Shown piece by piece: positions 14,701-40,000 of a stretch of DNA of 64,000 nt. This DNA comes from Carcharhinus amblyrhynchos. Taxonomy: Eukaryota. The position numbers and the translations under genes were made by a program. The first letter of the stretch is position 1, and each line of letters starts with the position of its first letter. The stretch covers positions 100,316,001-100,380,000 of the forward strand of contig OZ336872.1 of NCBI GenBank assembly GCA_965287045.1. Direction: 5' to 3'. Under the pieces are notes generated by a model, which was given only the letters and a program-made list of their open reading frames with translations, was not told the origin of the DNA and searched no databases.

Positions 14701-17700
14701 GTGAGCACTATACAAAAGTAGCACATTACAGACAAAGCATTGGAATCATTTTCAATTTGGCAAAAAAAAACAAGCCATGCCCATTATGTAAAGAGCAGCA
14801 ATACTGGGGAATGCTACAACTTTCTGCAAGTTGTAGATAAGCTTCCTACACGTCAATTGATTACACGTAAATCAACTAAGTAAGAAACATTTCAGCTGCA
14901 TAGTGCTACCAATTTTATTTCTCCCTCATATCCGCAATGCCAACGTACGGTTGGATTCTCAACTTTGAGCTTGGGATATTGGTCACAGAAACAGCACAAA
15001 AAAAGGCCATATACCAGCCAAAAAAATGCTGTCTTATATCCTCTTTGACCACCCAGATTATCAGTCCCACTACTTCAAATGATCTATGGACATCCACTCC
15101 ATGGACCCACTGTTTACACTTCTCAGAACAACCATTTATTGTCTACCCTTGCCTTGCAAACTTTGCATGCCTTTCTAAAATGCATTACTTATCAATTCTC
15201 TCGAGTGAATTCTATGCGCCACTTTCCTGCCTTCCTGACCTGTCTACTGGAATCTTCCTGCTACAACTGTTTTCCGTGCTATTAACCACACGGTCATCTT
15301 TTCCACTATCTGCAAACTTATCAATCACACTTGATACATTTACATCTAAAGCCATGATATATACCATGGTCCATCCGTAAGGTACCAAGCAGAGTTTCGC
15401 AAAACACCACTCAAAATGGTCAGACATACCGATTGATCAATACCTTTGTTTCCAGCCATGGAACCAATTTTGTACCCAACTTGCCAATTGCTCTTGAATC
15501 CCCTGGGCTTTTACTTCTCTAATGAATCTTCTTCTATTCAATTTACCAAAACCTTTCATAATTTTAAATAGTTATATCTCCTCTTAGCTTTCACCGCTCC
15601 AATAAAAACAGCCCCAGCATCCCATGTCCTACCTCAATGATGATTTCCTTTACCTAACATGCCATGAGTTCATACTGTGCAGTGTGGCTTCAATGTCTTT
15701 TCTAAATTTAAATCATATGCTTCATCATCCACGTGCTGTATATAGATCTGTAAATACTCCCGACAGGAATATTCCCACATTGGTTTTATAGTATCACTGA
15801 TTAAAACCAGCTAGAATTCCTTTTGCATTTTTACCTTTAACTTTAATACCAAGTTTCTTCAAGGCCTCCTCAACAGTCTGACTCTCCTTTTTCCGCATGA
15901 AACCATTGTCAATGTGAACAGCAATTACTTGGTCTTGGTTCAAAGCCTTATTTAACAAGGCTGTGCACACTGTAGAATCTACTCCACCACTTAGTAATAC
16001 CTATGGATTAAGTGACAACAGACAGAATTTCCACAGTGAAATCTGGTTATGTTTATTAAAGCAAATGTGTGCAATGGAATGTAAAACATGTTTTTCATTA
16101 TTGTACAAATTGTAAAATATCAGTAAAGCTTACCAAAACTTTGGAATGTCCTACTTTCTTTTGTATCTCTCTGATACATTCTACTTCTCTGCTCTGGACT
16201 GTGAATGTTCCGCTACAACCAGCTATATCAAACAAGAAATTCTTCAAAATGTCTTTGCCATGCTCTGTCAAATCTACTTCCGGGTGGAACTGAACACCAT
16301 AGAGCTTCTTGGATTCATTTGCTATTGCTGTATACAGTTCAAACAGAAAATTAACACACACATTTTAAAATACTCTTTTGTACAAGATCAAGTATGAAAC
16401 ATTTCTAAAATAGGCAATACTCCACATTCTCACTTGTTTTAATTTCATCAACTAAGCATTTCGAAATACGTCCCTTATAAGTAGAAGCTTTACAATAAAC
16501 ATCAACCACAGAAATAAAGTTGTATTATTCATTGATAGAAACAAGCTTACACCAGCCAGCTTCCACACTTTTAAGCTATCTCAGTAGTGACTTTGTGGGG
16601 AATCACTTGACCAGTTACTCACACAAAATTCTTTATTGCCAGTTCCAGAGTGGAACACCTGAAGGCCAGCCCTGGGATATCATATGGAAATCTCACTGTA
16701 GTCATACAAAGAGCTTTGCCAACCCTGGTCTGCCAACCATTAGATATGTTTGGCAGAGCACCAAATTCCCTCTCATTTTTCCTTCTTGTGTAGAACATCA
16801 TTGTACAGCACCTGCCCTCAGAGAAAGCAGTGACTGTTTCTACTATTAATTCGACTGCTTTATTATAGGCAATTACACTTCACTGCCCACAAACACAATA
16901 TACATTCCACTTTGGAAGGGATAGATAGATAGAGCTATAAATTATGATTTTACCTCAATCTGCAATGCAAAATCCTCTTAAAGCAATTACAAGATGAAAA
17001 ATAATGTCCGGGAATTATAGGTTCGCCCATTTAAGACAAAGGTGAGAAGGAATTTCTTCTCTGAAGGTAGTGAATCTGTGGAATTCATTACCATGAAGGG
17101 CTGAGGAGGCTGGATCATTAGGTACGTTCAGGGCTCAACTAGATTATTAAACAGTAAAGGAATCGAGGTTTATGGGGATAAGGCAGGAAAGTGGAGTTGA
17201 GGATTATCATAGAATCCTACAGTGCAGAAGGAGGCCATTCGGCCCATCAAGTATGCGCCAAGCACAATCCCACCCAGGTCCTATCCCCATAACTCCATCC
17301 ATTTACCCTAGCTAGTCCGCCTGACACTAGGAAGCAACTTAGCATGACCAATCCACCTAACCCACACATCTTTGAACTGTGGGAGGAAACCAGAGCGCCC
17401 AGACGAAACCCACGCGGACACAAGGAGAACGTGCAAACTCCCCACAGAGAGTGACCCAAGCCAGGAATTGAATCTGGGTCCCTGGTGCTAAGGCAGCAGT
17501 GCTAACCACTGTGCCACCATGCTGCCCCTAATCATTTCAGATCAGTCATGATCTCATTGAGTGGCAGAGCAGACTTAATGGGCCAAATGGCCTACTTCTG
17601 CTTCAAAGTTACACTCATTTAAATCTTACGCACACTTACTAAACCAATAATCTAACAGAAAGTACTGTGGGCTACAGAGCTTGATCAGGCAGCAGAAAGC

Positions 17701-20700
17701 TTTGACAAAACAAATAGTTTTCTCATTCCTCCCTCCACCACATTTTAGACGATCAGTTTACCAGGAAATAGTTTCAACGGTGGAGTAGGACCAAGGGAGG
17801 AGGAAGCATAAAATAATGCCTTCCTTTCTACGATATTATTCTGAAAAAAATAGTTGAAAGGTCTCCTACCTCACAGGAGATATTCCCAGTTTTACCATAT
17901 ATTTTCTACCATAAGTGGAGGCCCATCATTTAAGGTATCCCCTGCCAGAAGGGAGCTGGTCCACCAGGGCAACTACAAGAACTCCAGAATGCATTGTACG
18001 CATCGGGATTCCTTTGTGGCTCTTGACGCTGATGCAGTGTCTCAGCTGAGAAAATTCATTAACAATTGGATACTGGCATATAAAAATCACCAGACACACA
18101 AGAAAAATCACTGTGATAGTATACTGGTCATAATCACAGCATGGATAAATTGTTGACTTCCCATTTGAAAACAATGCGTCTGTCACACTACATTCAAAAT
18201 GCACGCAAACACAGTCAAACCTGGATTCACAAGTACTCATTGCTAAATATACCTGCTGCAATGTTTCCAGATTGTGCAACGACTTTGAAGCCCTCTGCCA
18301 CCTTGTCCACACTGTCACCGTGAGTGAGCAGAACAACCTCATCTTTCTGCAGACCTCTAATGGAGAGGGAATTTAAGAAATATAGAAAAATAAACAATAA
18401 TAAAACATGAGAACTGCATAAGAGGAGGGTAACGTTTTTAACAATGTTTAACAAAAGCCAAAATGAAATTGCTGATTCCATGGAAAATAATTCTAATTTT
18501 TTTCTTTAGGGCTGGGAAGAGGAGAATTTAAGAAAAAATATGAGACCTAAGCTTTAATGCAGAAAAAATTGCATAAAGCTTTTCAGTTTCAATACATTTC
18601 TAGCCTTGCTTTCTATATACAAAGTAGGTTTCATCAGCATAGCACAAAATGCAGAGACTATGGAAACTAAATAGTGCAAGAAACATTTTGGTATCTTGGT
18701 CAGGAAGGTTCATTAACTTTTCTTCAGAACAAAAAAAATGAAAATACATTTGATTTAAAATACGTCATCAGTACCTGAACAGTGAACAGTTATTATCCAC
18801 ATTTATTGTAAATAGGCCATCTTCTCTCACATTCTTTCTGTGCACTGTACCTCCAAAAACTTTATTCATCATCTGTGAATGTAAATACAAATTGGTTTCT
18901 ATGTAATGCTTCAATCTTCTTCTACATAAAACTTGAAATTCTAATCCACTATCAAACAGACAAACATCAAAGACAACTAATGAAAATCACATTTTACAGC
19001 AGTTAAAAAAAACACAAGTGCATAATTCAGCACAACAGCTTTAAATAAAATTATGCCACCATAATACTTCTAATAAAAAGATATAGACAAAAGCTTTAGG
19101 AACATAGGAAAAAGGAACAGGCCATTCAGCCCTTCCAATCTACTCCACCATTCTAGAAAATCACTGCTAATCTTCTACCTCAGGCAATTTTGCCAACTAT
19201 TTCCACATCTCTTGATATCTTTAATATCAAGAACATTATTGAATACACACAATGGCTGAGTCTTCACAGACACAGTAGAGAATTCCAAAGATTCATCACC
19301 CTAAGTGAAATTAGCCCTATTCTTTACCATACACTTACATTAATGATCTGAATTTGTGCACAGTACCTGCATTCCATAGCAGATTCCAAGAACAGGTTTG
19401 CCAATTGTAAATATTGCTGGATCAAACCATGGAGCATCTTCGGCATAGACAGAACTCGGCCCCCCCGATATGATGATAGCTCTGTAAAGTAGAAATAGTA
19501 TTTAAGAACAACGAACTTGCATATTTGTAAGAATGTGATAACTGCATTACAGTAAGCTGGTAATCAAATTCTATAACGAAAGATAGAAAAACTTACAATG
19601 CAAGAGATTAAGTGGTTTATAATAAAAAAGAAAAGTAGAAAGTAAAAGAGGGAATTCTAAAAAAACTGGAATTTAATACAAAAAGGAATGGAACAGTGAG
19701 TGTGCAAAATAGAACAAGATGTACTGTTGTAGAAAGTGTTGATTGTTTGATTTGACTTATTATTGTCACATGTATTAATATTCAGTGAAAAGTATTGTTT
19801 CTTATGTGCTATATAGACAAAGTATACTGTTCATAGAGAAGAAAAGGCAAGAGTGCAGAATGCAGTGTTACAGTCACAGCTAGGGTATACAGAAAGATCA
19901 ACTTAATGGAAGGTAGGTCCATTCAGAAGTCTGATGGCAGCAGGGAAAAAGGTGTTCTTGAGTCAGTTGGTACATGTCCTCAGACTTTTGTATCTTTTTC
20001 CTCGACAGAAGAAGGTGGAAGAGAGTATGTCCAGGGCGTGTGGGGTCCTTAATCATGCTGACTGCTTTTCTGTGGCAGTTACAAAGTTAGTCTCTCTTTG
20101 TTTTTTATAAAAGCACGATCAATTTGATTGGTGAAATTGGCTAATGAGCACTGCGCTTCAACTCCATGAAAATGCCAGACTTAAGTCATGTTTCCCAGTT
20201 ATCTTAATCACAAGTGCGTTCTTGAACTTAAAAAATTTTAAAGAAAGATACACAAATACATTTCAATATGCTACAATCTAAGTGCTAAAATTAACATACC
20301 ACATGGAAAGTTTTTAAAGCTCTGAAGGCGCAAAACTACCTCTTCTATGTCTTATCTCATTGTTAAAAGTCATTTAGCATTCACATACCAGATATACACT
20401 TACTCCTATTTATGTTCCATTCACTTTTTCGAACCTTGCTGGTATTTTTCATCATTATCTAAGACTATTAAATACATGAACAACACATTCGCATGAAATT
20501 CTGTATTTGTAACTTAAAAGGAATTTGGAATAGGCAACCCAAACAATAAACATACCCCACCATGGAGGTAATTTCAGTAGGACTGCTATTCTTCCAAGGG
20601 GTCTTGCAACCAAGAATGGATGAATGACAATTTTAATGCTTCCCTATTAGGAACATAGAAACCCTAAGTGCAGAAAGAGGCCATTGGGCCCATCAAGTCT

Positions 20701-23700
20701 GCACCGATCACAATCCCACCCAGGCCCTACCCCCATATCCCACTAACCTACACATCTCAGGAAACTAAGGGACAATTTTAGCAAGGCCAATTGACCTAAC
20801 CCGCATATCTTTGGACAATCCAAAGGGCTGGAGTGAAATGTTAGAAAGTTTTACCCACCTAAAAAGTGCTTTATGATTACAATCATATTGTAAAAAAAAT
20901 AAAAAATTATAATATATATATATTTCAAAGTGAATAAATACCAACATCCAGACTCATCCATTTAAGATGCACCAAAAATTGATTCCTACCGAAAACCATT
21001 CTCCTTGATTGCAAAAGCAGGCGTCTCCAATGGCAGGATTTCTGACTGTACAAAAAGTTCTCTGACACGCCGATCAATCACTTTTCCATACTGTGCTCCT
21101 GCATCAAGAATCACAAGGGCCCCTTCATATTGACATCTGACATCCTTGATGTCTCGTCCAGCAGTCTCCTATTCAAGAATGAGGAGGAGTGGAAGAGAAC
21201 TGATGACAGAATATTTTTACAACTGATTTACAAAACTTCTGAGAAATCGCTACGTTGCTGAAAGACATAATGTATTAAACCTTGGTGGACCACAATTGCA
21301 CAATTGAAAGTACACAACAGTTCAATGCTGTGCAATTTTAAAGTCAAACTGGTCAAATTGTTAAATCAAACTCCCTCCCATAACAACGCTGTGGGGCTGC
21401 AGCAGTTCAAGTGGCTTACCAGCACCTGTTCAAGGGCAATAAGGAATGGACATTAAAAACCGATTTTCCTAAGTAAACACTAAAAATTAAACATATGCTA
21501 TAATCTTAAAAGTTTAGGTAAACAAAGTTTCTAGAAACTTTATAAAAAAGAGACTAGATGTCAAAAGTGATCAAAGCATCAAAATCATTTTTATTAACAA
21601 TAAGGCAAATGATTGGAGCTGAAATGATCTAGGCTGCTTCAAGGCACCTATCATTAAAATATAAACCCAAAACCAGTTCTTCTTATACGTTGGAACACCA
21701 AAGATAACATCTCAAACTAATATTAGCTACTGACTGATGACGCCCATTTAGAAAAGTCAGGACAAGAAATTTATTTAGGTTTCTAGAGAAATATAATTCA
21801 AATGCCTGCAGTAAACACTTTCAATTCAAAAGTAATTTCTGGTGCAACTATTTTGGAGATAGTGTCAGCTCCAAACACATCTCAAAAAAAATTGTTGGCA
21901 GTATATATACTTACTCCGTCATATTTTCAATAGCCATCTTCTCCCAGATCACGTCTTCTTTGCCTTCATTTTGCCTGGGGCCAGTAGCAGTAGTAAAATC
22001 CAGCCACTGACAGCACATTATCAATGCAAATTTCATTTGGCTTTGAATATTGATCCATTGTCATTTTTGCTCATTACCTTATCGTAGAATCCCTACAGTG
22101 GAGAGGGAGGCCACTTGGCTCATCAAGCCTGCACCAACAACAATCCCACCAAGGTCCTACCCTGCACTAATTGGTTCATTTGATAGCATCACACAATTCT
22201 CCTAGATTGGGGGTTCAAACTGCCTTTAAACTCGAGTATATTTATCTAGGAGGACATTTCAGTGCTGTGTTACTGTTTCAGAAATGTCATTAATCAGTTA
22301 AAACATTGAACTGGGACCCTATCCGCCTGTTTTGGTCATTTTGTTTGACAGAAAATACCCCAAAGCAATATTTGAAGAACAGAGACTTCCTCTTTCAACC
22401 AAGTAGACGTGTAAATTGCCTTCTGCTTTTACTGACAAGATTTTGATCACACTGCCAGAGAAAAAGTAATTTATCATTGAAATTTTGCAACATCCTGAAA
22501 ACTGTAGTAATGCAAATTAATGCATTACCATTTGAATATACATTATTTCTTACTTCAGAACATAGAATAATAGCACTGTTCTAGGTCAGTCTCTTCTCCA
22601 CCTTTAGGTTGGACCATGTAACCAGGTTTAGTTGAAATCTGTTACTTTCTGAAATATACTGTTTACAAACAGGCAAAAACATCATGTTACAATTATGAGG
22701 GATGATGTTTTGGGACTCTTTTTTTTTTGTTTTTATTCCAATTCAATCCAATCAAGTCCAATTCAGAGTCTCAACAAGTTGAGACATTCCTGATCCAAGC
22801 TAAGACAGAGGTCTCGCCTCCTGTCTTGGGCTTGATCTACATGATCCAAGCTGACTGGAGTAGGCATACCTCCTCCTCCAAGGCTTGATCTCATCTGCAT
22901 CTTACAAAAAGACTAAGGTGCTGCTTTAAAAAATTGCTTCAAATGAAGCTGAAATGTAACCTAATGACTTCAACCAAGCACTGCATGTCCGTACTACACT
23001 TGATCTTAGCCAGAGGTCACGTGTTCTGTTCTCAAATCTGCCTGAAAGCAAGCCTTGATGGTTGGATTGTCAGAGATTGAAGAGATCCAGATTGTTTTTA
23101 CCAGGAAAAAGGTGCAAAGTATTTATACTTGGAGACAACAGCAGCAGCCTGTGTGCTAACAGTGGGTAAACTGAGACACTCCAAGTAGAAGCATTGACAA
23201 TGTTGGGCTGTAAAAATTATAAACTATTTACTTCCAAGATCAAGAAGAGTTGAGATCTCAAGGACAGCTATCAGCGTATCTACTTGGATAAAGATAGTCT
23301 GCCTGGATCCAGGGTAGAACAGGTAGATAGTCTACGGTTCACTGTGTAGAAATGCAGGTGGAAGCACGTACTCGGATTGGGGAGCCCAAATTCGTGGGGA
23401 GTGAAAATGAGGTTGGAAAATTTGCCTAGCTTTAGCTAGAGGGAGATGATTCCAGGAAACTTCATGCCATGAAAGGCAGTTCTGGAGTTAAAAGACTGGG
23501 AAAGGAAAAAGATCAGAAATAAATCCTCAGGAGACAGGAATCATCTTGGACTGATTCTGGTAGAACTGAATGTCTACTTAAAGGGCAATGTAATGTGTAC
23601 AATACTTCTTTTCCAATTACATTAAAAATTTTATTCAGCGGTTTAAAGTATAGTATTTTAGTGTTTAGTCAATAGTGTTTTGGGTCTGTTTGTTGCAGCA

Positions 23701-26700
23701 AGCATCTTAAAACATGAAATCTGTCAGCTATTAACTGGAAATTTGAATTTCCTTTCAAAAGTTCTCAGTCTCTATGGGGATCCAACATTATTGTTGCCTA
23801 TTTGCCTTATCTCCCAATGTTAATGGATCCTTTAAAATATTCCAGAACCGTGATTCCGAACTTCACCAAAAACTAATTAGTTCCTCATTCCCTATGTACC
23901 AAGTTTAATGAAATGAACATAGTAGTTTTTGAGATGTATTGTTTGCAGACAAACAGGCCACCAAACAGGCAAAATATTACCTCACTCATCTTCAATGGCA
24001 GAGGTAATCAGCAAATAACGCAACATCACACTTGAATAGAGGCGCTTGAAAAACAAAACCAAAGAAAGGGGTATAAAGAAGAATAATAAATGGAAATTCA
24101 AAGAGCTTGGGAAGAAAGTTAAAAAATAATTTAGAAAGCTAAAAGAAACTACACAGACGAATTGACCAGTGTTCTACAGGTATGTAAATGACAAATTGGC
24201 ATAGGGTTAGAGACACTAAGGTATGCATAAAACAAACGCCCAAATACTAACAGTGAAATGACAGAAATTTCTCACAGGTAGGCATATTAGAACAGATGGA
24301 AAATAAAAGATATTCAGGTTAGAAATTAGGAAAATATTTCATAAGCTAATCAAACAAGAGGATAAGACCACTAGTTCAGATAGATTGCATCCTCGCATAC
24401 TGAAGTGAGTTACAAAAGAGGTGGCAGAAGCACAATTAAATGAGGGAATAGTGTCAGAGAATGGGTGAACTGGTAATACTATTCCTCAACTTAAAAAGGG
24501 ACAAAGCACAAGTCCAGTAAATGAAAGAAAAGGTGACGGAAAAGATAATGGAACCCTTACACAAAGATATAAACGTCAAATATGTAATAAGAAATTTCAA
24601 AATGGAAGACTTTCTTGACTAACCTTATTGAACTATTTAAAGAGTAACGAAAAGAGTTGACACGGGTCAACTCTTTTTGCATTTAGCAAATGCAACATAT
24701 TAGGATTTTCGAAATGGTCCCCAATAGAACAGTCTCATATTTCAGAATGCACAGAACAATTAGGGCACAGGAGTTGGCCATTTCGCCTAACCATGCTGAG
24801 TCTCTGATGAGCAATCTAGTCAGTCACACACCCTCACTCTAGCCACTTAACCCTGCAAGTTTATTTTCCAGAAGTGCCAATCCAAGTTCCATTCCATACA
24901 GGGCAGCATGGTGACACAGTGGTTAACACTGCTGCCTCACAGTGCAAGGGATTCAAGTTCAATTCGGGCCTCTGGTGATTGTGCGAAGTCTGCACATTTT
25001 CCCCATGTCTAAGTGGGTTTCCTCCAGGCACTCCGGTTTTCACCCACAGTCCAAAGATGTGCAGGTTAGGTTGTTTGGCGGGGGGGGGGATGGTTTGCAC
25101 TAAGGCAGAGTGGGCATATAAGGCAAATAATTTCAATACAGATGATCATGATTATTTTGGGAAGAATAAGGAAGGTGTCTACGGCTTGAATAAGACTTTG
25201 TGTGGGACTGAGGACAAAGGGATCTAGTGGTACAAATACACAAAACACAAACAGTAGCATGCACTGAGATTCACTTTGAGATGAGTCAAATACAAAAGAA
25301 GTTATGTTAAAATCAGGAATTCCAACAAGACCACACTCACAAGTGTGTGTACAGTTCTAGTCTCCGTACCATAAAATATCTAGAGGCATGTGAAAAAGGT
25401 GCAAGAAAGATCAATAAAAATAATCATACCTATCAGGAAAGATTGAACCAAAAGGGTCTTTCTCTTGAAAAGAGGAGAGACCTAAAAGCGCCCTGATTAT
25501 GGAGCTCGATGTGGAAATGACCAGGGGTCATAAATATAATAAATCCAAAAGGGAATTCAGGAAAAACTTTATCTAAATAGGGTGAATGTGGAACATGCTA
25601 CAGTGCAGTAGTTAAGGGAGTTAGCAGATACATTTAAGGGGAAATAGTCATGTGGACTCAAAAGATTAGCTCTGCTGCTCTCTCCAAAAACACTGCCAAA
25701 CCTGTTGCATAATCCAGCATTTTCTGTTCTTATTTTACATTTAAAGGGAAGCTAAAGAAGCACGAGGGATAAAGGAGTAAGATTTCCTGGTAGGGTTGGA
25801 ATGAAGAGGGATGGAAGGAGCTTTGTGTTGAGCAGAAATATTGGCATGGATGCATAGTCTTGTTTCTGTGCTCTAGACGCTATGCTCTGGATTTAATGGT
25901 CAATGGTAAAGGAATTGCTCAGTACACTGACAACTGCTTGAAAAGTTTCCACAGGCCTCTGAGAAGCGGCTTCCTGTCACCCAATCAACCAGACTGTAGA
26001 ATTCTCAGACACAAAGGCCAAATCAGCAAGTATAAATTAGATTCAAATAATGGACAGAAAACGCAGATTAAAAAGCAATAATTAAATTTTGCAATGAATG
26101 AGATTCTACATTTGTAAAATTAAGTTCAGTGCCAGAGATTGCTTGATACTAATTTTGACTTATCACACCATTAAAAACTTACTTACACCTGAACGAACAA
26201 GTTATTTTTCTTCTAGCGCCTTTAGTGTGACTATCACAGGTTCAAGCCTTTAAATAGATTGCAATAAATTTAACCCAGTCTGTGAACCAATAGGGTAATG
26301 TGACCATAACTTCTAGGTTTCTGCATATTCACACTGTCGAAACTAGAAGTCACCATGTGAACAATTACTGACATAAACCCTATAACTGCCTTTAATTTGA
26401 TCTATAACTTTGTTGTGCATCTTTTCTGATGGTGAACCTCTACCAGAGCTCTTCCATCATAGACTGAAAAACCTATTTTTTTTCTGATTTCCTCAGCTCA
26501 ATGTTATGTTGCTAACCTTAGGACGCTTCTCTCCACAACTTCTCTTGAATCATAGTGACCATGTGCAGGGTTGAAAGAAACATAATTCACCAAAGGTAAG
26601 AAATTTACAGTACATCAAAGTACTGACAAGGCATCATCCCGCACAAAAAAACACCGATTCTGAACAGCAATTACAATATTTTATACTCATAAGGCACTTC

Positions 26701-27463
26701 AACCAGAACAGACAACTTTTAAAAAAAACAGGTTACATGTGCCGTGCAGAGTATATTTTCTGCATTGTTTCAAACCTTGCTCCCGAAAAGCGTGTCATGC
26801 TGCAAAGTGACTGCCATATGTTACTCCCGTCTAATATTTACCCATTTTAATAACCATTAGTTACTCTGTTTCTCGAGGTCGCTCCTGCTTCAGGGGGGCA
26901 ATGGCCATTTTGCGACCTCGGATATTAACGATCAGAGATCAGGTGTGAACGGCGCAAGGTTCCTGGACCCCAGGTACAGTTTGACAGAGTGAGGAGCTGT
27001 CCAGAGGCCCCACTCCACTTTCTGGAGTTCCAGGAACACACACTGGAGACGGGCTGGGGAGGAGGGAGCCCAACTCCAGCAGCTGCCGGCCGCTGGCTCG
27101 ATCGATCGGTCTTCCCCATTCCCTCCCGCCAGACAGCAGGCCCGGGATGAAGCCTTGCCTCTCCGACCTGCCAATGCCGACAACAAACAGCCTCCACCCC
27201 CGCCCTTCCCCTCGCCTCCCGCGGCCTGGACATGGGCCCCCGCCCCCAGGTCACCATCCTGGAGAAAGCGGGCAACTGAGCGCCCGGATCCCCCCCAGGC
27301 CGCAGCCTCGACTCCCAGCCCCCCCCAACCCCCCGGCGCAGCACAGCGTTATTGCCCACCACACCTCCCCCGCTCTGGGTGCTGCCGTTCGCCGCCGAGC
27401 CCCGCTCCCCGCCCGGCAGACACCAACCTTGGAGTCGCCGTTACACAAGGCCACCGCCGCCAT
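8677..27463 (-). CDS. GMPS: GMP synthase (glutamine-hydrolysing), complete 16-exon gene, spliced CDS 2088 nt = 695 aa
   Basis: All 16 exons are GT-AG and phase-compatible. The translation has the GATase motifs GICYG and HPE, the SGGVDS loop and the C-terminal KPPGTTEWE*. Confidence 0.98.
9287..9459 (-). CDS. GMPS: GMPS exon 15 ([10 protein letters not shown]...TSDFMTG...PEE)
   Basis: 173 nt, GT-AG. Confidence 0.96.
10035..10165 (-). CDS. GMPS: GMPS exon 14 (VVYIFGP...LRES)
   Basis: 131 nt, GT-AG. Confidence 0.96.
10316..10431 (-). CDS. GMPS: GMPS exon 13 ([11 protein letters not shown]...HNIN)
   Basis: 116 nt, GT-AG. Confidence 0.96.
10957..11082 (-). CDS. GMPS: GMPS exon 12 (PHTLLQRV...KTVGVQ)
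   Basis: 126 nt, GT-AG. Confidence 0.96.
11250..11945 (-). mobile_element. CR1-type LINE 3' fragment
   Basis: cccagaactgtccacaatactcca is the reverse of the LEYCxQFW motif. Confidence 0.7.
13318..13433 (-). CDS. GMPS: GMPS exon 11 (PGLAIRIIC...SVKK)
   Basis: 116 nt, GT-AG. Confidence 0.96.
13533..13638 (-). CDS. GMPS: GMPS exon 10 ([16 protein letters not shown]...RHPFP)
   Basis: 106 nt, GT-AG. Confidence 0.96.
13998..14171 (-). CDS. GMPS: GMPS exon 9 (IANEVIGE...IKTHHNDTE...REE)
   Basis: 174 nt, GT-AG. Confidence 0.96.
14315..14466 (-). CDS. GMPS: GMPS exon 8 (VNAAH...GDTFVK)
   Basis: 152 nt, GT-AG. Confidence 0.96.
15040..15600 (-). mobile_element. CR1-type LINE RT fragment
   Basis: ORF 15212-15427 contains IDKFADS (a decayed KFADD). 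Confidence 0.6.
15835..16000 (-). CDS. GMPS: GMPS exon 7 ([12 protein letters not shown]...)
   Basis: 166 nt, SGGVDS motif. Confidence 0.96.
16134..16327 (-). CDS. GMPS: GMPS exon 6 ([17 protein letters not shown]...KVL)
   Basis: 194 nt, HPE motif. Confidence 0.96.
17207..17528 (-). mobile_element. Full-length HE1-like V-SINE nested in a plus-strand CR1 3' end (17010-17605)
   Basis: tRNA-like head, V-core and CR1-type tail (gatgggccgaatggcctccttctgcactgtaggattctatg). Confidence 0.88.
18253..18356 (-). CDS. GMPS: GMPS exon 5 ([16 protein letters not shown]...)
   Basis: 104 nt, GT-AG. Confidence 0.96.
18775..18872 (-). CDS. GMPS: GMPS exon 4 ([11 protein letters not shown]...SLF)
   Basis: 98 nt, GT-AG. 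Confidence 0.96.
19098..19310 (-). mobile_element. CR1-type 3' end
   Basis: Similar to 52-300. Confidence 0.6.
19367..19481 (-). CDS. GMPS: GMPS exon 3 (AIIISGGP...GICYGMQ)
   Basis: 115 nt, GT-AG, catalytic Cys motif. Confidence 0.96.
19740..20078 (-). mobile_element. Rex/L2-like LINE 3' end
   Basis: Reverse homologue of 28080-28368 with a (tcaaa)n-type tail. Confidence 0.75.
20652..20815 (-). mobile_element. HE1-like SINE 3' half
   Basis: Matches the tail of the 17207 copy. Confidence 0.75.
20990..21168 (-). CDS. GMPS: GMPS exon 2 (ETAGRD...[18 protein letters not shown]...GF)
   Basis: Acceptor TAG|GAG, donor CG|GTAGGA, 179 nt. Confidence 0.93.
22205..22520 (+). mobile_element. DeuSINE-like copy, very decayed
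   Basis: Patchy similarity to 61017-61400. Confidence 0.45.
22719..23018 (-). mobile_element. U2 snRNA-headed, poly(A)-tailed retroposed element
   Basis: 22992-23012 is an exact match to U2 nt 18-38 (TGGCTAAGATCAAGTGTAGTA), followed by ~260 nt of non-U2 sequence, AATAAA and an A-tail. Confidence 0.75.
24901..25075 (+). mobile_element. HE1-like SINE 5' half, within decayed CR1 sequence (~24130-25880)
   Basis: gggcagcatggtgacacagtggttaacactgctgcc head plus V-core. Confidence 0.8.
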
Positions 27464-27810
27464 CACCACTGCCCCGCTCCAGCCACGAGCTGCCTGCTTT
27501 CGCGCGCCCACACTGCCCCGCGCCGAGCCCAGCTTGGTCCCGCCCCCATCAGTCGGCCAGCCCCATACTCTCAGCCCGCCGCTAGGAGGGGCTCCCGAGC
27601 ACAGTCAGCCGGCTCACACTCTCAGCCCGCCGCTAGGAGGGGCGCCCGAGCACAGTCAGCCGGCACACAGTCTCAGCCCGCCGCTAGGAGGAGCTCCCGA
27701 GCACAGTCAGCCGGCGCACAGTCTCAGCCCGCCGCTAGGAGGAACGCCCGAGCACAGTCAGCCGGCGCACACTCTGAGCCCGCCGCTAGGAGGGGCTACC
27801 GAGCAGAATC
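26870..27810. promoter_or_regulatory. CpG island / GMPS promoter and exon 1
   Basis: Strongly GC- and CpG-rich against an AT-rich background. YY1-like GCCATTTTG at 26904-26912. Confidence 0.85.
27428..27463 (-). CDS. GMPS: GMPS coding exon 1 ([12 protein letters not shown])
   Basis: GTGATGG start context, donor AAG|GTTGGT, inside a CpG island. Confidence 0.92.
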
Positions 27811-27812
27811 AG
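27550..27812. repeat. 51-bp minisatellite, ~5 copies
   Basis: gctaggagg recurs at 27581, 27632, 27683, 27734 and 27785. Confidence 0.95.
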
Positions 27813-27924
27813 CTAAACAGCAGCTCATGCTGGAATCTGAAACGAAAAAAATTCTAGGAAGATTCAGCAGATCTGGTAATAAAAGCAAAACACTGCGGAT
27901 GCTGGATGAAAAGCACACTTTCTT

Positions 27925-30189: not shown

Positions 30190-30505
30190 TCATGGAATCC
30201 CTACAACACAGAAGGAGGCCATTCAACCCATCGAGGCTGCACCAACATTAAGCCCACCCAGGCCCTATCACCATAACCCCACATATGTACCCTGTTGGTC
30301 CCTTCTGACACTCAGGGGCAATTTTGCACGGCTAATCAACCCAATCCTCACATCTATGGACTGTGGGAGAAAATCCTGAGACCCAAAGGAAACCCATGCA
30401 GACATGGAGAGAAAGTGCAAACTTCATTCAGACAATGACCCAAGACTGTAATTGAACCCAGGTTCCTGATGCTCTGAGGCAGCAATGCTAACCACTGTAC
30501 CGCCC
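30190..30505 (-). mobile_element. HE1-like V-SINE, near full length
   Basis: Head, V-core and CR1-type tail on the reverse strand. Confidence 0.85.
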
Positions 30506-31604
30506 ATTGCTGGATTTGCAGCATAGATTTGAACCAAACTCGATCCAGTAAATTAGAGCTGGTGATTCACAATGTAAGAATCAGTTAAATAGCAGAATTT
30601 ATGTTCCTGCAATGCCACTCAATCTGAGAAATTGGAATCTCACTGCTGCAGATAGTAAATTGTCCTTAGGTGTACTTTAAATTTTAACATGTTTTTCTTA
30701 ATTTTCCTGTCTTTTTTTCTCTTACTCTTAATCCAATCTTCCTTTCTTTCTCTTTATTTCTCTTTCTCTCATGAATTTGACATTTATTCACCCCATTCTT
30801 TCTTTCAGTTTATTTCTCAATCCTTAAATTTGTTGAAAGAAAATAATTAATAAGCCCATCATTCACCAAGATCCCAGGTGTTCCATTGACCCTCCTGTGC
30901 CTTTATCAATTCACATTCTCAGCAACAGTGCAAAAGAATTTGACGCTTATTGTCAAGGAAAAAATCCAATTCACATTACAGACCACTCCAATATTTTCAA
31001 AGTTTGCTGAATTATCCCCATTGTGATCCCTGCTCACCATAGCCACCTAAACATCATCATCATGTGTCCTCTGCAGAAAGGTCAAGCACAGCACAGAGGA
31101 AGACACTAATGACTTTTGCAAGAATAATTTCAGTATTGCAGCGCGCAGAAAACCAGGCTTGAGGAATCTGAGCTGGAAGCTTTTGGAAAAAAAAGGATAT
31201 TCGGCTGGACATCATGCAGATTGTACCCAAAAAGAGCATACTTAAAGATGGATTGATAAAGATATATGGCTTGAGAGTGGGTATTTTGGATAACAGGTTA
31301 CTACAAATAGTGGGTTTGTAGAGGTGACTGGTGTCAGGTGGCGTAGAGATTTGGAGTGGTGGATGTGTCAGCAGTTGTAGCAAGGGAATATAGTGAGCTA
31401 TAGATGAGTTTAGAAAGGGCAAAGGGTAGATGAAAATATTGGAAAACGCCAAGTGTAAGGGCTAAAATGCTAGGGAGAGCAAGAGATCAGGGAGGAAACT
31501 GAAATAAATAAGAGGTAAGTTGAGGTATTTAGTGCTTTAAATTGGCTTTGCCATTCAAGCCATCCATTGCCCAGATCCATTTCTTACACCAACCCCATTT
31601 TCAT

Positions 31605-31878
31605 TAGTTCTCTCAGTAGTTCATAGCTCTCTCAATTCTGAGTCATAAGGTTTTAGGTTCAAGTCCTACTCCAGGACAAGCACAAAAGTCAAGGTTACCA
31701 CTCAATGCAGTACTGGGGGGAGGGGGGTGGCGGTTGCTGCATTATTGGAAGTGCAGATTTTCAAATGAGCTGTTAAACCAATACCCCATCTGTTCACTCA
31801 GATAGAAGTAAAAAAATCTTGCACTATATGTTGAAGTGGAGTAGGCAAGTTATCCCCATGTTCTGGTCAATATTTATA
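31605..31878 (+). mobile_element. DeuSINE-like (SacSINE1-type) 5' portion
   Basis: ggttcaagtcctactccagg...aggttaccactcaatgcagtactg, homologous to 61017-61400. Confidence 0.7.
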
Positions 31879-32145
31879 CAGTAAGCAGTCTCACAACACC
31901 AGGTTAAAGTCCAACAGGTTTATTTGGTAGCAAAAGCCACTAGCTTTCGGAGCACTGCTCCTTCATCAGGTGAGTGGGATTTCAGTTCACAAACAGGGCA
32001 TATAAAGACATAAACTCAATTTACCAAATAATGGTTGGAATGCGAGTCTTTACAGGTAATTAAGTCTCAAAGGTACAGACAATGTGAGTGGAGAAAGGGT
32101 TAAGTACAGGTTAAAGAGATGTGTATTGTCTCCAGCCAGGACAGT
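31879..32145 (-). mobile_element. Penelope-like element terminal fragment
   Basis: Carries the hammerhead and a downstream AATAAA, and truncates a DeuSINE-like copy. Confidence 0.65.
31938..31972 (-). ncRNA. Minimal type I hammerhead ribozyme (Penelope-like element type)
   Basis: CAC-CUGAUGA-A-GGAGC-AGU-GCUCC-GAA-AGCU-A-GUG: intact core, 5-bp stem II, palindromic stem III. Confidence 0.8.
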
Positions 32146-32314
32146 TTAGGTGCTCCTGTCTCCAGCAGGTTTTGGGGTCTGAGGTAGCCCTGTTTCCAGC
32201 AGGGTAGGGATTAGGTGCACTTGTCTCCAGCAGGTTTTGGGTGAGGGTTTACGTGCCCCTGTCTCCAGCAGGTTTTGGGGTCTGAGGTGGCCCTGTGTCC
32301 AGCAGGGTTGGCAC
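32127..32314. repeat. Imperfect 30-38 bp minisatellite, 6 units
   Basis: tgtNtccagc at 32127, 32157, 32191, 32222, 32260 and 32294. Confidence 0.9.
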
Positions 32315-32357
32315 GAGCCTCTCCCCCCTCCCGGCTCTGTCAACCCATCAGAATGAG

Positions 32358-32365
32358 CCACGTCA
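32358..32365 (-). promoter_or_regulatory. UPRE / XBP1-type element TGACGTGG
   Basis: Exact CCACGTCA immediately before the putative exon 1. Confidence 0.6.
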
Positions 32366-32438
32366 CTGGTTTGCCGCCGCCGCCGCCGCGCGGAGGAGGA
32401 GCTGGTAGCTGGTGATCTGGGATCGAGCTGCGGCCTAG
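32366..32438 (+). other. SLC33A1: Putative non-coding first exon of SLC33A1 (start approximate)
   Basis: CpG island, (GCC)5 run, donor TAG|GTGAGG at 32438/9. The first coding exon begins at a splice acceptor (36262/3), so an upstream exon is needed. Confidence 0.65.
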
Positions 32439-33831
32439 GTGAGGAGGGAATGTGGCTGTGCCGCAGGATGGGGCCGAGGGCTGCCTGTCCTGGTGTAGCC
32501 CGGGGAGGTAGGGGGTGGTGATAGAGTCGCCGGGCGTGTGGCTGTCGCCGGCTGAGGAAGATGCTTTGCTGCTCAGACCGGCTTTGGCTTCATGCCGGGA
32601 GGCGGCTGCTCAAGTTCGCTTTCCCCCCCGTGATAACCGGCAGTTCAACCGCCGCCTGAGGAGCCTCTGCCCGGGAAACAGGGTCAGGCTGTGCGCTTTA
32701 TCCCATCAATCAGTAAAGCTAGCTAGACATTAAATCAGAATTATCAGCAGAGAATAACATTCCAGTTGATTTTAAACGATTGCCTTTGAATGAGGATTTA
32801 CTTGACCTTATCAGGCAGTAGTTACAGAGCGGCCTGGTAAAGGGTATTTTCCTTAGTCATTGCACTGATTGTAGTTGTAAAACCGGTATACTGTAAAGTG
32901 AATCGTTTGTTTATTTCCTGAACAAAGTTGTCAAGAATTTATGTAATTTAGTCCATGATCTTGGACGTCTAAATATTCTAATCACATGGGTTACAATGTC
33001 TGAGCCTTGGGAATTTGTATTTGTTGTTACGACCAGATGAGGAGGGGTTGAAAGGCACTTTTCCCCCTACTTGTCAAGCTTAACGGTTTATGTGTTGTGA
33101 TTTTATAAAGATGCAGTAGGACAGGTTTTCTGCAGTTGAACAGAGCAAGGGCTTAATTTTATTATATTAAAATCATCCAGATAAAAATACATCTTGGTTT
33201 CCACATGCACTCAAGTTAAACGTGTGAATACATATTTCAGAGTGGAAGGGATACGTTTGGCAAATTAAAAAATGATAAACCAAGTTTATGGTTTGTATCT
33301 TGTTTGACTGCACATGGGATCAGAGAGCTTTGCTTTCAGCACTGGGGCAGTTTAAAATAATAGCTGGTGTTTTCTAGATCTACTGCAGTAATCTAGCTGA
33401 GACTGAACTCTTAATCTATAAGCATAACTTTTCTGGTTTTTCATTCTATAGCCAAGGATCCATTTAACAGCCTTTTCAACCTTTCAGATTGGATCTTCAA
33501 AACCCTGTGTGTGTAACACCGTCCCCCATCTCTCTGCTTCTGCATGCTTTTTTAAATTGTACCATTTGGTTTCTTCAACCAAAACACTTCACGTTACCTG
33601 CCATCTGTCTGCTGTTTCACCAGTCTGTCCATGGTCTCCTGAAATCTGTTACTATTTTCCTCATATCTCATATGTGTGAGTGTGTCCTCCATAAATCTTA
33701 AAATTATGCCCTGTATATCTAAATTATGAGGTCATTATCGCACAAAAAAAGGGCAGTGTTCCCAACACTGACCCTGAAGTACATGATTGCATACTTCCTT
33801 CTAATCTGACAAAGATTCACCATTATCCTTT

Positions 33832-34282
33832 AGAACATAGAACATTACAGCGTAGAACAGGCCCTTCGGCCCACGATGTTGCGCCGACCAGTTAAAAAGC
33901 AATGACCCTCTAACCTAAACCAAACCCTTTCCATCCATAAACCTATCCACGGATCTCTTAAACGCCCCCAAACTAGGCGCATTTACAACTGCAGCAGGCA
34001 GGGCATTCCAATCCCTCACCACCCTCTGGGTAAAGAACCTACCCCTGACATCCGTCCTATGACTACCACCCCTTAATTTAAAGCTGTGCCCCCTCGTGCT
34101 AGCTTTCTCCATCCGAGGAAAAAGGTTATCACTGTCCACCCTATCTAAACCTCTAATCATCTTATATGTTTCAATAAGGTCCCCCCTTAGCCGCCTTCTT
34201 TCTAACGAAAACAACCTCAAATCCCTCAGTCTCTCCTCATAGGACCTCCCCTCTATACCAGGCAACATCCTGGTAAACCTCT
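33832..34282 (-). mobile_element. Young CR1 LINE 3' end nested in older CR1 sequence (~33400-34930)
   Basis: Uninterrupted ORF RFTRMLPG...LFSLERRRLRGDLIETYK...WNALP and a (ttctatg)n-type tail. Confidence 0.92.
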
Positions 34283-36298
34283 GTCTTTCTGTCATTCTGT
34301 CTTTCAGTTAATTTCATATCCACACAGCGATTACTCCTTTTATGGGTTTCAATTTTGTTAACAGACTTATTTGGTACTTTATCAACCTCTTTTGAAAATC
34401 CGTATTAAACCATCAATCACACCACCCTCGTCAACTGTCTCTTATAATTTTGTCGAAGAACTTAATGAAGTTAGTCAAACATAGCTTGTTTTTAAACATA
34501 TCCTTTCTGGCTTTCATTTATTTATCCATATTCTTTCCACATGCCAAGTTTCCCACCACTGATAGTGGATTAATTGACCGGTAATTGCTGAGTGCACCCT
34601 CACCTCTTCGTTGAACAAGTGTCTACATTTGTAATACTGTAGTTCTTATTCACAGCTCCCATATCCAAGGAATATTTTGGATAGAACCTCTACCTTTGCT
34701 TCCCTCAGCAATGTAAGAGATATCCATCATACATGAGGTCAGTTTTTTAAGTACTCCATTTTATGTATTTTTATTCCTTTAATTTTCTCAGCTACTCTCT
34801 TTGTTTGACACTGGAAACATTCTCTTTCAGTGAAGATAATTGCAAATTATTCATCTGGTATCTCAGCTATGCCCTGTGCCTCTGTGAGAAGATACCCTGC
34901 CCCTTTCCTATTTGCATACTTTTATGTTTTATATCTTCTATGCTGCACCACTGAAAAATTTCAATATGGGCAAAAAATTTGAATGCAGACAATTCAAAGG
35001 AAATTTAAATTTTGTTTGAATTTAACAACATGTTGAGATAATACAAAGTAGGAACAGGAAAGTTTAGAGATTGCAAGACGGATTGGAGCAAATAAATGAT
35101 CCAAAATGCAGTTGAGAGGAGCAGACAATACTTAATGTATTTAGCATGATCGTTAATTTGTTAAAAGAGTACTCAGATTCTAACAACCTTGAGTCTCTCA
35201 ATTTTTTCCCCTGTTACTGGAAGAATCCCCAAGAACAGAACCTAAACTGTCATTGCCCCCTTTCAAACCATCAGTACTCCCCCACCTTCCCACTGTTCCT
35301 CGTGTCAGCTCATTTTATGCCCTTGTACCCCATCACCATTTTCTACATCAGCAATTCATTCTCGCCTTGATATTCCTGCCTTAATGCATTATTTCCTCTT
35401 ATGGTTATGATGGAAAATTATAAGCTCATGGTGTACAATATCTTGATGTGTGCTCCGAGCATGTGCCAAATGTAGTAGTCAAAAGATCTGTGATTTATTA
35501 CTCCATTAATGAGTTTGTTAGCTTAATTCAGTCTTTGATTTTGAGTCCACTAACAATCAATGACTTCATAACTACTCAAGTTTTATAGTTTATGCTACTT
35601 CCAAAATTTTTTAAATTTCAAAAATGTTTAGAGATTTTCTATCTAAACAAAACATACAACTCAATACAAACAAGTCCGATTACCAACAGCTGACAGTTAT
35701 GCAATCTCTTCTAATCATTAACAAAGAAATCATGATCACAGATGTTACTGTTCACATGTCTGTCTGAGCAAGTCCTGATAACAACTGTATGTATTAATAA
35801 ATTTAAATAAGTACCAGTGTTGTATAACTTTGTTTTCTTGTCTCAAGACGTGGGTTCAAAACCAGTTCCAATTGAAATAGGTTCAGTAACATTGATAGTT
35901 GTTTCCTCCTGGTTATTGAGAATTTGAAGTAAAATGAGTTTTGATAATTGGTGGTTTCTGGTGCGTTTCAATTTCAAACAAGCAGCTTGAAATTCAGCAA
36001 TTACAGTTACTGGAATGGAGCTTTCATTCAGATAACATATGGAAATTAAAATTATACACAGATGCAGCTGAAGTGCTATTTTGTTACAGGCCTGGTATAA
36101 GTGCTGTAGAGGAAAGCTTCAATTACTCTATATCATTTAAGAGATTCTTAACTAAAATGGAAATTGCTCTTTAACATGCAGAGTTTATTTGTGCTCATTG
36201 CAATGAAGCTTTTTGTCTCACAGTTTATAAAGTTTAATTATTTTTACTAATTTTGGTTTCAGACTCCCAATGTGACATGTTGATTGAAGAAATCTGAC

Positions 36299-37049
36299 AT
36301 GCCGTCTTCAGCTATACCCAAAGAACGTAGCAGGCAACGTATTGAAAATCCCATTGAAGCTTGGCGCATGCAAAATGATGCGTGGAACCATGAGACCAAT
36401 TTGGAAATAGATGAAAGCAAAAGCCTATTAGAAGACCACAACAATCGATTATCAGAACCTAAACGTAAAATTGTCCTAAAAAATGATTTTGATAACATTT
36501 TATTGCTCTTATTCCTCTATGTGTTGCAGGGAATTCCACTTGGTTTGGCTGGGAGCATCCCACTTATACTACAAAGCAAAAATGTTAGTTATTCAGATCA
36601 AGCTATTTACAGCTTCGTGTTTTGGCCTTTCAGTCTAAAACTGCTGTGGGCACCCTTAGTGGATGCTGCTTATTTTCCAAACTTTGGACGGAGAAAATCT
36701 TGGTTGGTGCCAACTCAGTATCTTTTGGGACTTTTTATGCTTTGTCTATCATTCAAAGTGGAGGCACTGCTGAGAAGTGATGAACACACTAGCCCTGATA
36801 TTGTTAAACTCACAGTTGTGTTTTTTATATTTGGGTTTCTGGCTGCTACTCAGGATATAGCAGTGGATGGCTGGGCATTAACTATGTTATCCAAAGAAAA
36901 CGTAGGACTTGCTTCTACTTGTAATTCAGTTGGACAGACAGCTGGGTATTTTCTCGGTAATGTGCTCTTCTTGGCATTGGAATCAGCAGAGTTCTGCAAC
37001 ACATATCTACGTTCTCAATCTCAACCAACTGGAATTGTCACTCTATCAG
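36299..37049 (+). CDS. SLC33A1: SLC33A1 first coding exon (exon starts at 36263)
   Basis: MPSSAIPKERSRQR...GIVTLS, donor G|GTAAAG. Confidence 0.95.
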
Positions 37050-40000
37050 GTAAAGTGCAGACAATCTTACTTAAAAGTAGTTGAAGTTCAAGTATTTTGG
37101 TTTAATTAAGTGTGAATTATGGCTTTAGGTGACACTATTAGTAGCTTTTGAACTTTAGTTGTAAAATTCCTGTCCTCTGATGCATTTTAATGATGCAGAA
37201 GCTGCATGCAGTTTTAGTGTAAAAACTTTGGGTGGCAGCAGTTAGTGCAGGATCAAGGTATGACTATGGAGGATTAGTGTTTTATTGATATGTATTTTGA
37301 ACATTGGCGTTTTAGAAATCCACCATGTTAAATGTTTGTTCTGACTTTTTGGTGTTGGTATGGGGCTTTTTAAAAAAAAATCCCAGTTCTGTCAGTCAGT
37401 GGAACCAAGAGCTGACTGCAGAGTTGAGTTTGGTGGAGGAATAGATGCAGGAGAGACTGAGCTGGTCCTCCAGCCATAGATTCTGTCATTATTGAATAAG
37501 TTATCAATGACTTTAGTCATTATTCTCACTTAATGTTCTAATAATTAGATTACAACTTCCCCTCTGTTCTGTTGATATTGGTAGGAAACTTCGTTTATGA
37601 GGGAGACTAAGGTAAAACTAAAAGCATTGTTCACATACGGTGTGCTTAAACCACTTTTACAGACTGCTAATGCACTAGTGGCCATAGAGGATCTGCATGT
37701 TGGGAGTTGGCAGCTTTAGCACAACGTATAAGTGGCTTCAAAATCTGAATCTATAAATGTGCTCCACTTAGTTTCAAGTGAAGTTTAAAAGTTAATTTCA
37801 TAGATATTCCCTGTGCCCTGTTCATTGCATTGCTGCTCAGTGATTCCCTTTAATGTGTGGATTTGCTTCATAGAATAATTCTGGAGGAAACTATAGTCCT
37901 TGACTGCAAATGCAGCATGCTGTTCCTTTTTGTTATTAAAGGAACCTTATGTTTCTATGTATGTTCTTGCATGTCTATGCTTTTTTGATTTTATGCAAGA
38001 TTGCTATCATTTATCTAATGTGTTTTCACCTTTTATCTTCATGGAGAACTATTTTTTGAGAAAAACTTATGCATTCCTAAAATTATCTGAATTCATGGAG
38101 GACATGACTAAATTCAAACCCCTCTTTCAAATTAATAAGTGGTTACTGTATGTAATAGTACTCTGTGTATGATTGCATCGCATCTTCACAACTGTTGTCT
38201 TTTTTTATCTGCCCCTTCCCCCTTGCACAGTTTTTATATTTGTATCAAACTGCAGTAAATGAGATTATTCTTGAATAGAACGGTTGCTGAAATTTCAGTC
38301 CAAGTTTGAATACCCAATCTTCCAGAAATTTTAAGTTTTTCAAGACTAAGATAATTGGATTTTCTGTGAAGTAATTATTTATTTAGTGAATGCAAAAGTC
38401 CTAAACCAAGCAGTTTTTTCCAGTCCTGCTGATTTGAGTGCAGATAGGTCTCTATTGAGTCTATGGGTTGGACACTCTTCTGTGAGGTGGTGCATAGTTT
38501 GCTGTTCCCCACAGGCACATGGGGACTGGCACTCCTGTCCCATTTGTGGAGATTGGTCAAGTGGGAGCTGTGGCCAGCCCTGAAACTGTTGAAGGTTGGA
38601 CCACTCTTTCTTTGGTAGATTGAAACCAGACAACTGTTGGGTTATGTTTGAGACCAGTTACTTTGTTTGCCGTGTCCGATGATTCCCGTTTATTTGTTCA
38701 GGTAGAATTTGCATTGAAGTCCTGTGTGGGAGGGTTTTTCCAGATCGGCATTCTTGATGGGAGTCATACTTTGGACTCAATAGATCAGTTTGAAGTAGCA
38801 AATTGTGTGTGTGTGTGTTGGGGGGGGGGGGGGGGGGGGTGCATGGTGAAATTTTTTCTATCATTTTATGGGTTGTTGCATGTTGTTAGACGTGGGGTAG
38901 TGCTGTTGCCAGGACAGGAAGCCAAGGGAGTGGTGTAGTATGCTTGGCAGAATTCAGTTGGCTGGCAACTCCGTGTGCACATGCCAACTTGATTGCCAAC
39001 CACACCGACATGCCCACAAGATTGTTTCCTACCCTGGACACCATCTCTGCTTTGGTTTTCTGTGGTATGTGCAGGCTCAATAATATATTATTCCCTTCTC
39101 TCCATCCCATGTGCCAACCCCATTGAGTGTATTTCCACTTTTACAGCTCTTTCTGATCCACTGATGAATGTGTGTTTGACTGTTCCTTCATGCTGAGCAG
39201 TTTGCTGCTTCCCTTTTCTTCCTGCCTGTGCTCCAGAAAACCAATAAGATAATTTAGATGTATTTGAATATTTAACAAGAATTTTCCAGCTAGATATCAG
39301 CTTTAATAATGTATTAACAATTAGTATTTTATGTTGCTGTCACAAAGGATCTCCAGCCATTTTTGTTTGTGAACAGGTTGTAATTTTAACTAAGTGTATA
39401 ATGTTTATTTGAAAAACTGTATAATTTTTAAACTGAAATACAGATAGCATTTTATTTTTGCTGCAATTCACTTCTCTCATATTTCTGCTTTCATTCTGGA
39501 ACCTCAGGTTTGAATCATAGAAGCAAAGGAGTTTTAAATACAGAATTAAGATATTTGGTAGCTCCTTGCTCTCATGGTTTAAAATCAATCCCACTACTCT
39601 GTGGTTTTCCAGTTGTCCAGTACCTTCCTCTGCTTCAAATCTTTATTTCATTTTCTCTTAAAAGATATAGTAGTCTCTGCCTCAACTACTAAAATCTTCC
39701 ATACTCCAATAACTGTCTGTTTAAAAAAAAAACTCATAACCTTTCCATTATCGATTTTTAATCTCTCATGACTGATTAAAACTGTATTAAATTTGTTAGA
39801 TACAAATTTCAATGACCATATGTTAGGGTAATCTGCATAATTGTTCAATATCATCCTTTAATACACTTATATTCTCATTTCCCGCATCCATCTGTAAAAT
39901 CTGATGCAAAATAATTAATGTATTTCCTGTAATACCTTCATCTTCCATGATTGGACTTGTTCTTCATCTCTGAGCAGCTCAACTGTTAATTTTCTATACT

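Follow-up and report, generated by a model that had tools for sequence, protein, structure and literature searches.

A minimal hammerhead ribozyme motif in a truncated, probably neutral Penelope-like element copy between GMPS and SLC33A1 of Carcharhinus amblyrhynchos

A hammerhead on the minus strand of the 64-kb window (the whole stretch of Carcharhinus amblyrhynchos DNA analysed here) represents a known kind, namely the minimal ribozyme motif that is standard in the terminal repeat of a Penelope-like element. We consider it highly probable that it sits in a truncated, likely neutral stub of a Penelope-like element (PLE), which probably landed by chance between GMPS and SLC33A1, and that it likely does not cut as a monomer. 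The evidence comes from the motif itself, from the thousands of related copies in the same genome, from the distribution of their 5' ends, and from the surroundings and predicted folding of the window copy.

The motif and its element family

The minimal type-I hammerhead was read directly from the sequence at 31972-31938 (minus strand), and the same architecture was found in full-length elements. Stem I pairs CAC (31972-31970) with GUG (31940-31938) over 3 bp, to which a fourth U.G pair at 31973/31937 could be added. The core CUGAUGA (31969-31963) is followed by an extra A (31962), and stem II pairs GGAGC (31961-31957) with GCUCC (31953-31949) over 5 bp around a 3-nt loop. GAA (31948-31946), the palindrome AGCU (31945-31942), and A17 (31941) complete the motif, for which a cut is predicted between 31941 and 31940. 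Hence, the sequence features of a minimal hammerhead (min-HHR) are present: the catalytic core C3 U4 G5 A6 N7 G8 A9 ... G12 A13 A14 A15.1 ... U16.1 H17, the G10.1-C11.1 pair in helix II, the extra nucleotide after A9, a short helix I, and a palindromic minimal helix III provided by AGCU at 31945-31942. A sequence-only reading of this DNA had claimed a complete minimal hammerhead at 31938..31972 with its cut at 31941/31940, and its parts match that description both in the sequence and in a descriptor scan, which gave 31972-31938 as the sole hammerhead on the two strands of the window. A 32-mer of the hammerhead matched once in the window when up to 3 mismatches were allowed, and not at all in 100 shuffles. 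An AATAAA at 31919..31924 (minus) is a family-wide motif that lies within a 31-mer with 20,561 genomic matches; its presence below the cut had been noted correctly, while the distance given as about 17 nt was measured as 16 nt from the predicted cut to its start at 31924. The proposed check with Infernal hammerhead models gave no support, as the Rfam models missed the motif both in a gathering scan of the window (0 matches) and in an E-value scan of 31700-32200. We infer that this miss reflects a limit of the models for minimal motifs. The E-value scan also returned a group II intron match, which was discarded as chance (E 6.3).

The hammerhead had been regarded as a lone feature, which is contradicted by searches of the shark's own 2.9-Gb genome. 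A 228-nt query around the motif gave 4,668 first-look candidates, and scoring of 40 of them revealed 39 places besides the window copy that are 93-96% identical. The stretch common to the window copy and 29 close genomic copies runs from 32146 to 31878, and these shared boundaries delimit a 269-bp pLTR / 3' UTR copy of an EN+ Penelope-like retrotransposon on the minus strand (31878..32146). Nearly all of the 29 copies extend further 5', and many extend about 35 nt further 3' into an optional tail; since close copies run beyond both of its ends, the window copy is doubly truncated. In the longer copies, an ORF stop lies in the 5' extension approximately 38 nt upstream of 32146, and the end of this ORF was called as GIY-YIG by Pfam (locus L012). 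The window copy accordingly begins some 38 nt downstream of the stop of the family's ORF, contains no ORF, and is without the ~35-nt tail. Genome-wide exact matching gave 353 matches for the 35-nt hammerhead with one loop wild card, 2,056 intact hammerheads when the stems were fixed and N7, the loop, and H17 were left free, and 20,561 and 4,133 matches for two forms of the downstream 31-mer, all of which are lower bounds; reversed-pattern controls gave 0 matches. Contig depths summed over the repeat were set aside as a measure of copy number. The motif therefore sits in a high-copy repeat whose family exceeds 20,000 copies, at least 2,056 of them intact and with the same stems.

Full-length members were located with a GIY-YIG protein piece, which gave 35,722 candidates in the same genome, and several open frames near 900 aa were present among the 150 scored. 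Eight long-frame regions were fetched; three of them (L051, L053, and L055) are organized as hammerhead-pLTR, ORF, and hammerhead-pLTR with the paired hammerheads about 3,020 nt apart, and inverted arms are seen in others. Pfam called RVT_1 on the 893-aa ORF P0001, whose GIY-YIG was uncalled although the motif is visible in the sequence, and gave 0 matches on an ORF piece of L007. The single ORF with RT and C-terminal GIY-YIG that characterizes EN+ PLEs was thus identified at the family level, from RVT_1 on P0001 and GIY-YIG on L012. A CX2-5CxxC linker lies between RT and EN (CHSNLCKTC in P0001), which is common to Neptune, Nematis, and Naiad, and points to an element of the Neptune/Nematis type. 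The full-length elements constitute a younger subfamily, which matches at about 72% in the pLTR and at 76-80% across the protein piece. Several uninterrupted ~900-aa PLE ORFs were seen in L051 (C13:53307500-53314000) and other regions, which suggests that a PLE subfamily was recently active in this genome. The copies further display the variable 5' truncation, inverted forms, and 30-40-bp tail of EN+ PLEs, and a tail-like sequence was detected by a loose pattern in 71 of 124 sampled copies. Stem II sequences differ between the subfamilies yet keep pairing: among 54 13-nt stems, found with a search pattern that required the core, four changed A-U to G-C at pair 3 and three changed G-C to A-U at pair 4. 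The assignment to the minimal hammerheads of PLEs, with their palindromic stem III, was hence borne out by AGCU together with the identity of the family.

These properties resemble those of known systems, as far as they are described in the parts consulted of the papers cited here. The min-HHRs of metazoan PLEs (Cervera and De la Pena 2014, PMC4209133) share the type I form, the absence of a true helix III, the palindromic 15.2-16.2, the extra nucleotide between 9 and 10.1, G10.1-C11.1, and the short helix I, and likewise occur in thousands of mostly single copies with stems variable within one genome. Fishes, coelacanth, Xenopus, and reptiles are the hosts named there, and sharks are absent from the consulted parts. 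The listed differences are the 5-bp stem II and the 3-4-bp stem I of the shark element, whose family also exceeds the copy numbers of 4,000-9,000 quoted in that paper. EN+ PLEs of the Neptune/Nematis type, as covered in part of Craig et al. (2021, PMC8557442), share the single ORF with RT followed by GIY-YIG, the CX2-5CxxC linker, partial tandems, inverted 5'-truncated copies, and the optional 30-40-bp tail.

Several further observations were made on the repeat and its copies. Head-to-head inverted pLTR pairs, a known Penelope insertion form, occur in 11 of the 29 close loci (L002, L004, L005, L008, L010, L015, L022, L024, L025, L027, and L030), and a ~120-bp repeat at about 30385-30506 is present in many of the fetched loci. 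The two hammerheads of one element differ in stem/loop II in both L051 (positions 1361 and 4385) and L053 (1374 and 4399), while the 45 nt above them are identical; these differences echo the unexplained hypervariability of PLE hammerheads described in the consulted parts of PMC4209133. A 34-bp minisatellite (32148-32306, TRF) adjoins the 5' end of the window copy, and its core resembles the first ~20 nt of the copy, which may be due to microhomology at the 5' junction or to seeding of the repeat by the element. No target-site duplication was seen by eye around the window copy.

Copy 5' ends and the likely start of the element RNA

The 5' ends of genomic copies were examined in two samples, namely 96 copies located by one anchor (98 of its first 100 listed matches lay in fetched regions) and 28 copies located by a second anchor (the first 30 of its list). 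Ends within +3..-8 of C3 were found in 28 of 68 copies still at risk in the first sample and in 7 of 16 in the second. Taken together, these 12 nt contain the 5' ends of 35 of 124 copies, compared with 31 ends in the 40 nt that flank them (p about 1e-7), with a mode at -7 (10 copies); the 12-nt interval was chosen after the first sample, and the copies, which all lie in the first 15 Mb of a single contig, include some paralogous pairs or two arms of one insertion. At the cut site, by contrast, no excess of ends was detected in the same 124 copies (5 at -2..+1 vs 18 in the 22 nt above, p=0.27), a comparison that would miss an excess of a few percent, and the idea that copies begin at the cleavage site was thus unsupported in this sample. 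A similar position was obtained independently from joints in four other DNA runs: of the 217 joints, 15 were listed, and 14 of these are strand switches with ends at 31971-31977, six of them at 31975 and three at 31976.

The fetched loci contain 84 distinct hammerhead cores, and 56 of these carry a TATA in the 45 nt above. Its spacing is 35-36 nt above C3 in 51 of the 56 TATA-bearing copies, across two subfamilies that are only ~72% alike. CCCACT or TCCATT occupies -9..-4 in 42 of the 56, and both presumably fit the initiator consensus. In the window copy, the TATA-like box of the pLTR lies at 31999..32004 (minus), 35 nt above C3, and is likely the core promoter, while the initiator-like CCCACT at 31973..31978 (minus) places the likely RNA 5' end at about 31976/31975. 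Since the ends pile up at the 5' edge of the hammerhead, approximately 29 nt below the TATA, and show no excess at the cut site, the element RNA likely starts at this edge and is mostly copied uncut. The simplest reading of this pattern is that the pLTR promoter, with its TATA at -29/-30 and Inr, would start the RNA about 6-7 nt above the hammerhead core, and that RT would run off this end on uncut RNA; the most frequent end, however, coincides with the C that precedes the expected +1 A, and the ends are blurred by a few bases through microhomology. The element's RT would prime at a DNA nick and start inside the RNA near the ORF start, yielding copies with or without the tail, and would stop early or at the RNA 5' end, so that uncut RNA would be the source of most genomic copies. 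Cutting by the ribozyme would require the pairing of two copies via the AGCU palindrome, probably with the element's protein as a chaperone.

A TATA and an Inr-like motif were likewise proposed for the Pen2a pLTR of Adineta vaga (Arkhipova et al. 2013, PMC3846280, in part). In comparison with Pen2a, the TATA spacing of the shark element is held across subfamilies and coincides with a 5'-end pile-up at the hammerhead edge. The Drosophila Penelope is described as having a TATA-less internal promoter in the part consulted of PMC2377424. The Poseidon element of Anolis carolinensis, PAc (Frangieh et al. 2024, PMC11167929, in part), shares the pLTR hammerhead, two 3' ends with and without the tail, and insertions made from uncut RNA. 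Its ORF starts inside stem II, whereas the ATG of the shark element lies ~124 nt below C3 (L051) and its protein has the Cys linker. In searches of the main texts of the open literature, we found no paper on such a 5'-end pile-up or on shark PLE hammerheads.

The same ends bear on the idea that the hammerhead belongs to a separate non-autonomous family, either a SINE or a non-LTR retrozyme, whose members would be mobilized as one fixed unit. Many copies are indeed short and ORF-less, 35 of the 124 share a 5' end, and retrozymes derived from pLTRs have been described (bioRxiv 10.64898/2026.07.22.740005). A fixed unit is nevertheless at odds with 5' ends that are spread without a gap between the motif and points over 1 kb inside the ORF, with the absence of a head-to-tail tandem array, and with the single copy in the 64-kb window. 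The window copy moreover starts at an unshared point, beyond which almost all close copies extend. We therefore regard this idea as extremely improbable and, for the window copy, as largely refuted; a truncated PLE stub remains our preferred reading.

The locus between GMPS and SLC33A1

An open frame with a large coding exon of SLC33A1 (acetyl-CoA transporter) was identified at 36284..37084 on the plus strand (Pfam Acatn, E 3.4e-64), and GMPS-type exons (GATase / PP-loop) lie on the minus strand at 14-21 kb. The likely first coding exon of GMPS is at 27428..27463 (minus), in a GC island ~4.4 kb from the hammerhead; Pfam gave no match on this putative exon, whose translation we take to match the human GMPS N-terminus. 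With SLC33A1 on plus and GMPS on minus the two genes are divergent, and the claim that the motif lies between them agrees with these exons. The motif had also been placed about 400 bp from the SLC33A1 TSS; this distance fits the GC-rich segment at 32350..32440 (plus), a putative promoter or non-coding first exon in which position 32439 marks a GT donor-like site, and the TSS there stays putative. Just above this GC-rich putative start, at 32358-32365, lies CCACGTCA, presumably the reverse complement of the XBP1s/ATF6 UPRE motif TGACGTGG. Mammalian AT-1/SLC33A1 has been placed downstream of XBP1s in a preprint consulted in part (10.1101/2020.03.25.008557). A 51-bp GC-rich tandem repeat (27567-27813, 4.8 copies, 91% matches) is located in the GMPS GC island ~100 bp above the likely start codon. 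Another repeat near the copy, at 33915-34307 (minus), translates like what we take to be the end of a LINE ORF2.

The age and decay of the insertion were evaluated from related copies. Compared with the majority sequence of the 29 close copies, the window copy is changed at 8 of 269 sites (3%), and within the hammerhead 1 of 35 sites is changed (a CpG change in loop II) against about 1.0 expected, a comparison of little power over 35 nt at 3% divergence and with copies picked for their similarity to the window copy. The decay likely fits neutrality, and this comparison gave no sign of selection. Intactness is a minority state but not rare, as 71 of the 124 copies sampled by a downstream anchor span the motif and 15 of these 71 are intact. 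The sequence-only reading had listed the orthologous site in other sharks as a check, which was obtained in part. Contigs of four other organisms contain the flanks of the copy at high identity, and relatives' contigs also cover the minisatellite at 32148-32306; the X6 contig reaches 22 nt into the 3' end of the copy and the X5 contig 29 nt into its 5' end (both below the 31-letter bar), and the listed pieces of the X7 and X8 contigs cross no junction. These pieces, outside which the hammerhead lies, hint that the insertion may predate some close relatives, a hint that concerns age and carries no information about selection.

The closeness to SLC33A1 had been given special significance. If 15,000-25,000 promoters are assumed, chance alone would place 2.6-4.4 of the 2,056 intact copies within 500 bp of promoters on the right strand. 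As at least 2,056 intact copies exist and about 3-4 are expected near promoters, the position of the hammerhead needs no special explanation. The window copy at GMPS/SLC33A1 would thus be a passenger.

A passenger might still influence transcription. The window copy keeps its TATA, Inr, hammerhead, and AATAAA, all of which point toward GMPS 4.4 kb away, and we consider it possible, though rather unlikely, that the copy acts without its ribozyme, either because the AATAAA ends the SLC33A1 upstream-antisense RNA after ~400 nt, or because the TATA/Inr fires toward GMPS, or both. Early poly(A) signals can end promoter-upstream transcripts, and on the minus strand below 32400 neither another canonical signal nor a GGTRAG donor precedes the AATAAA at 31924; the TATA and Inr are intact as well. 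The same motifs, however, sit in thousands of copies, the next AATAAA at 30814 would serve without the insertion, and a biochemical effect need not be selected. A search of sequencing runs listed no RNA run with the sequence, a negative that has no bearing on expression. Should the copy affect upstream-antisense RNA at all, the cause would more likely be the AATAAA or the TATA/Inr of the copy than the ribozyme.

Predicted cleavage and its meaning

Two-dimensional folding, which ignores tertiary contacts and chaperones, was performed in four contexts of 46-501 nt. Stem I formed with a probability of 0.00-0.11, the hammerhead fold lay 2.5-6.3 kcal/mol above the MFE, and a competing hairpin over the cut site had a probability of 0.20-0.87. 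These predictions suggest that the window hammerhead likely does not cut as a monomer, and with the monomer fold disfavoured, the earlier remark that a single copy would need a partner was upheld. No partner hammerhead in cis was found on either strand of the 64-kb window; an 18-nt match at 53791-53774 was considered for this role and rejected, as it is without a surrounding hammerhead. The nearest exact same-strand copy among the matches listed is 55 kb away. The AGCU palindrome duplex was evaluated at -4.5 kcal/mol, and a cofolded pair did not form a double hammerhead. Dimer cleavage of such hammerheads has reportedly been described by Lunse et al., going by the title.

Efficient dimer cleavage of PLE minimal hammerheads had been taken as established, but the consulted parts of PMC4209133 report no monomer cleavage and low cleavage of dimers and trimers, even in cis. 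For the anole PAc, cleavage was observed only with the element's protein, insertion in vitro needs no cleavage, and no RNA-seq ends occur at the cut site, according to the part consulted of PMC11167929. These results weigh on the proposal that the hammerhead cuts divergent antisense RNA in trans with family RNAs via AGCU, limiting read-through toward GMPS. Its core is intact and its orientation is right, every intact member (2,056 copies) offers the same palindrome, and the young full-length ORFs could supply protein. The weak duplex, the cofold, the competing hairpin, and the 55-kb distance argue against it, together with the low activity in cis dimers, the lack of RNA-seq ends at the cut site of the anole element, and the genomic copies that show no excess at the cut site. 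We accordingly hold trans-cutting to be very unlikely. We give as little credence to co-option of the stub as an SLC33A1/GMPS antisense terminator, with its hammerhead switched on in trans by family RNAs (and protein). As regards domestication, the copy number is high, the decay is as neutral evolution predicts in the low-power comparison above, and the orthologous pieces stop short of the motif. If co-option were true, cleavage of a promoter-upstream transcript of the host would be gated directly by the expression of a retrotransposon, and trans-activation at host promoters, if real, would add a novel route by which retrotransposons affect host RNA.

For a probably neutral, chance-landed stub, the locus itself carries little weight, being one of thousands of retrotransposon hammerheads of known type. 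The family is of wider use, as the role of hammerheads in endonuclease-bearing PLEs is still called unclear in the part consulted of PMC8557442. The pile-up of 5' ends predicts that the transcript of the element would begin with the ribozyme, over its initial ~36 nt, so that the cap would be lost on cutting. It also predicts that uncut RNA would be the usual template in vivo, in line with what was observed in vitro for the anole element (PMC11167929, in part). The 5'-end data of this shark family hence provide a testable handle on the role of the hammerhead in endonuclease-bearing Penelope elements.
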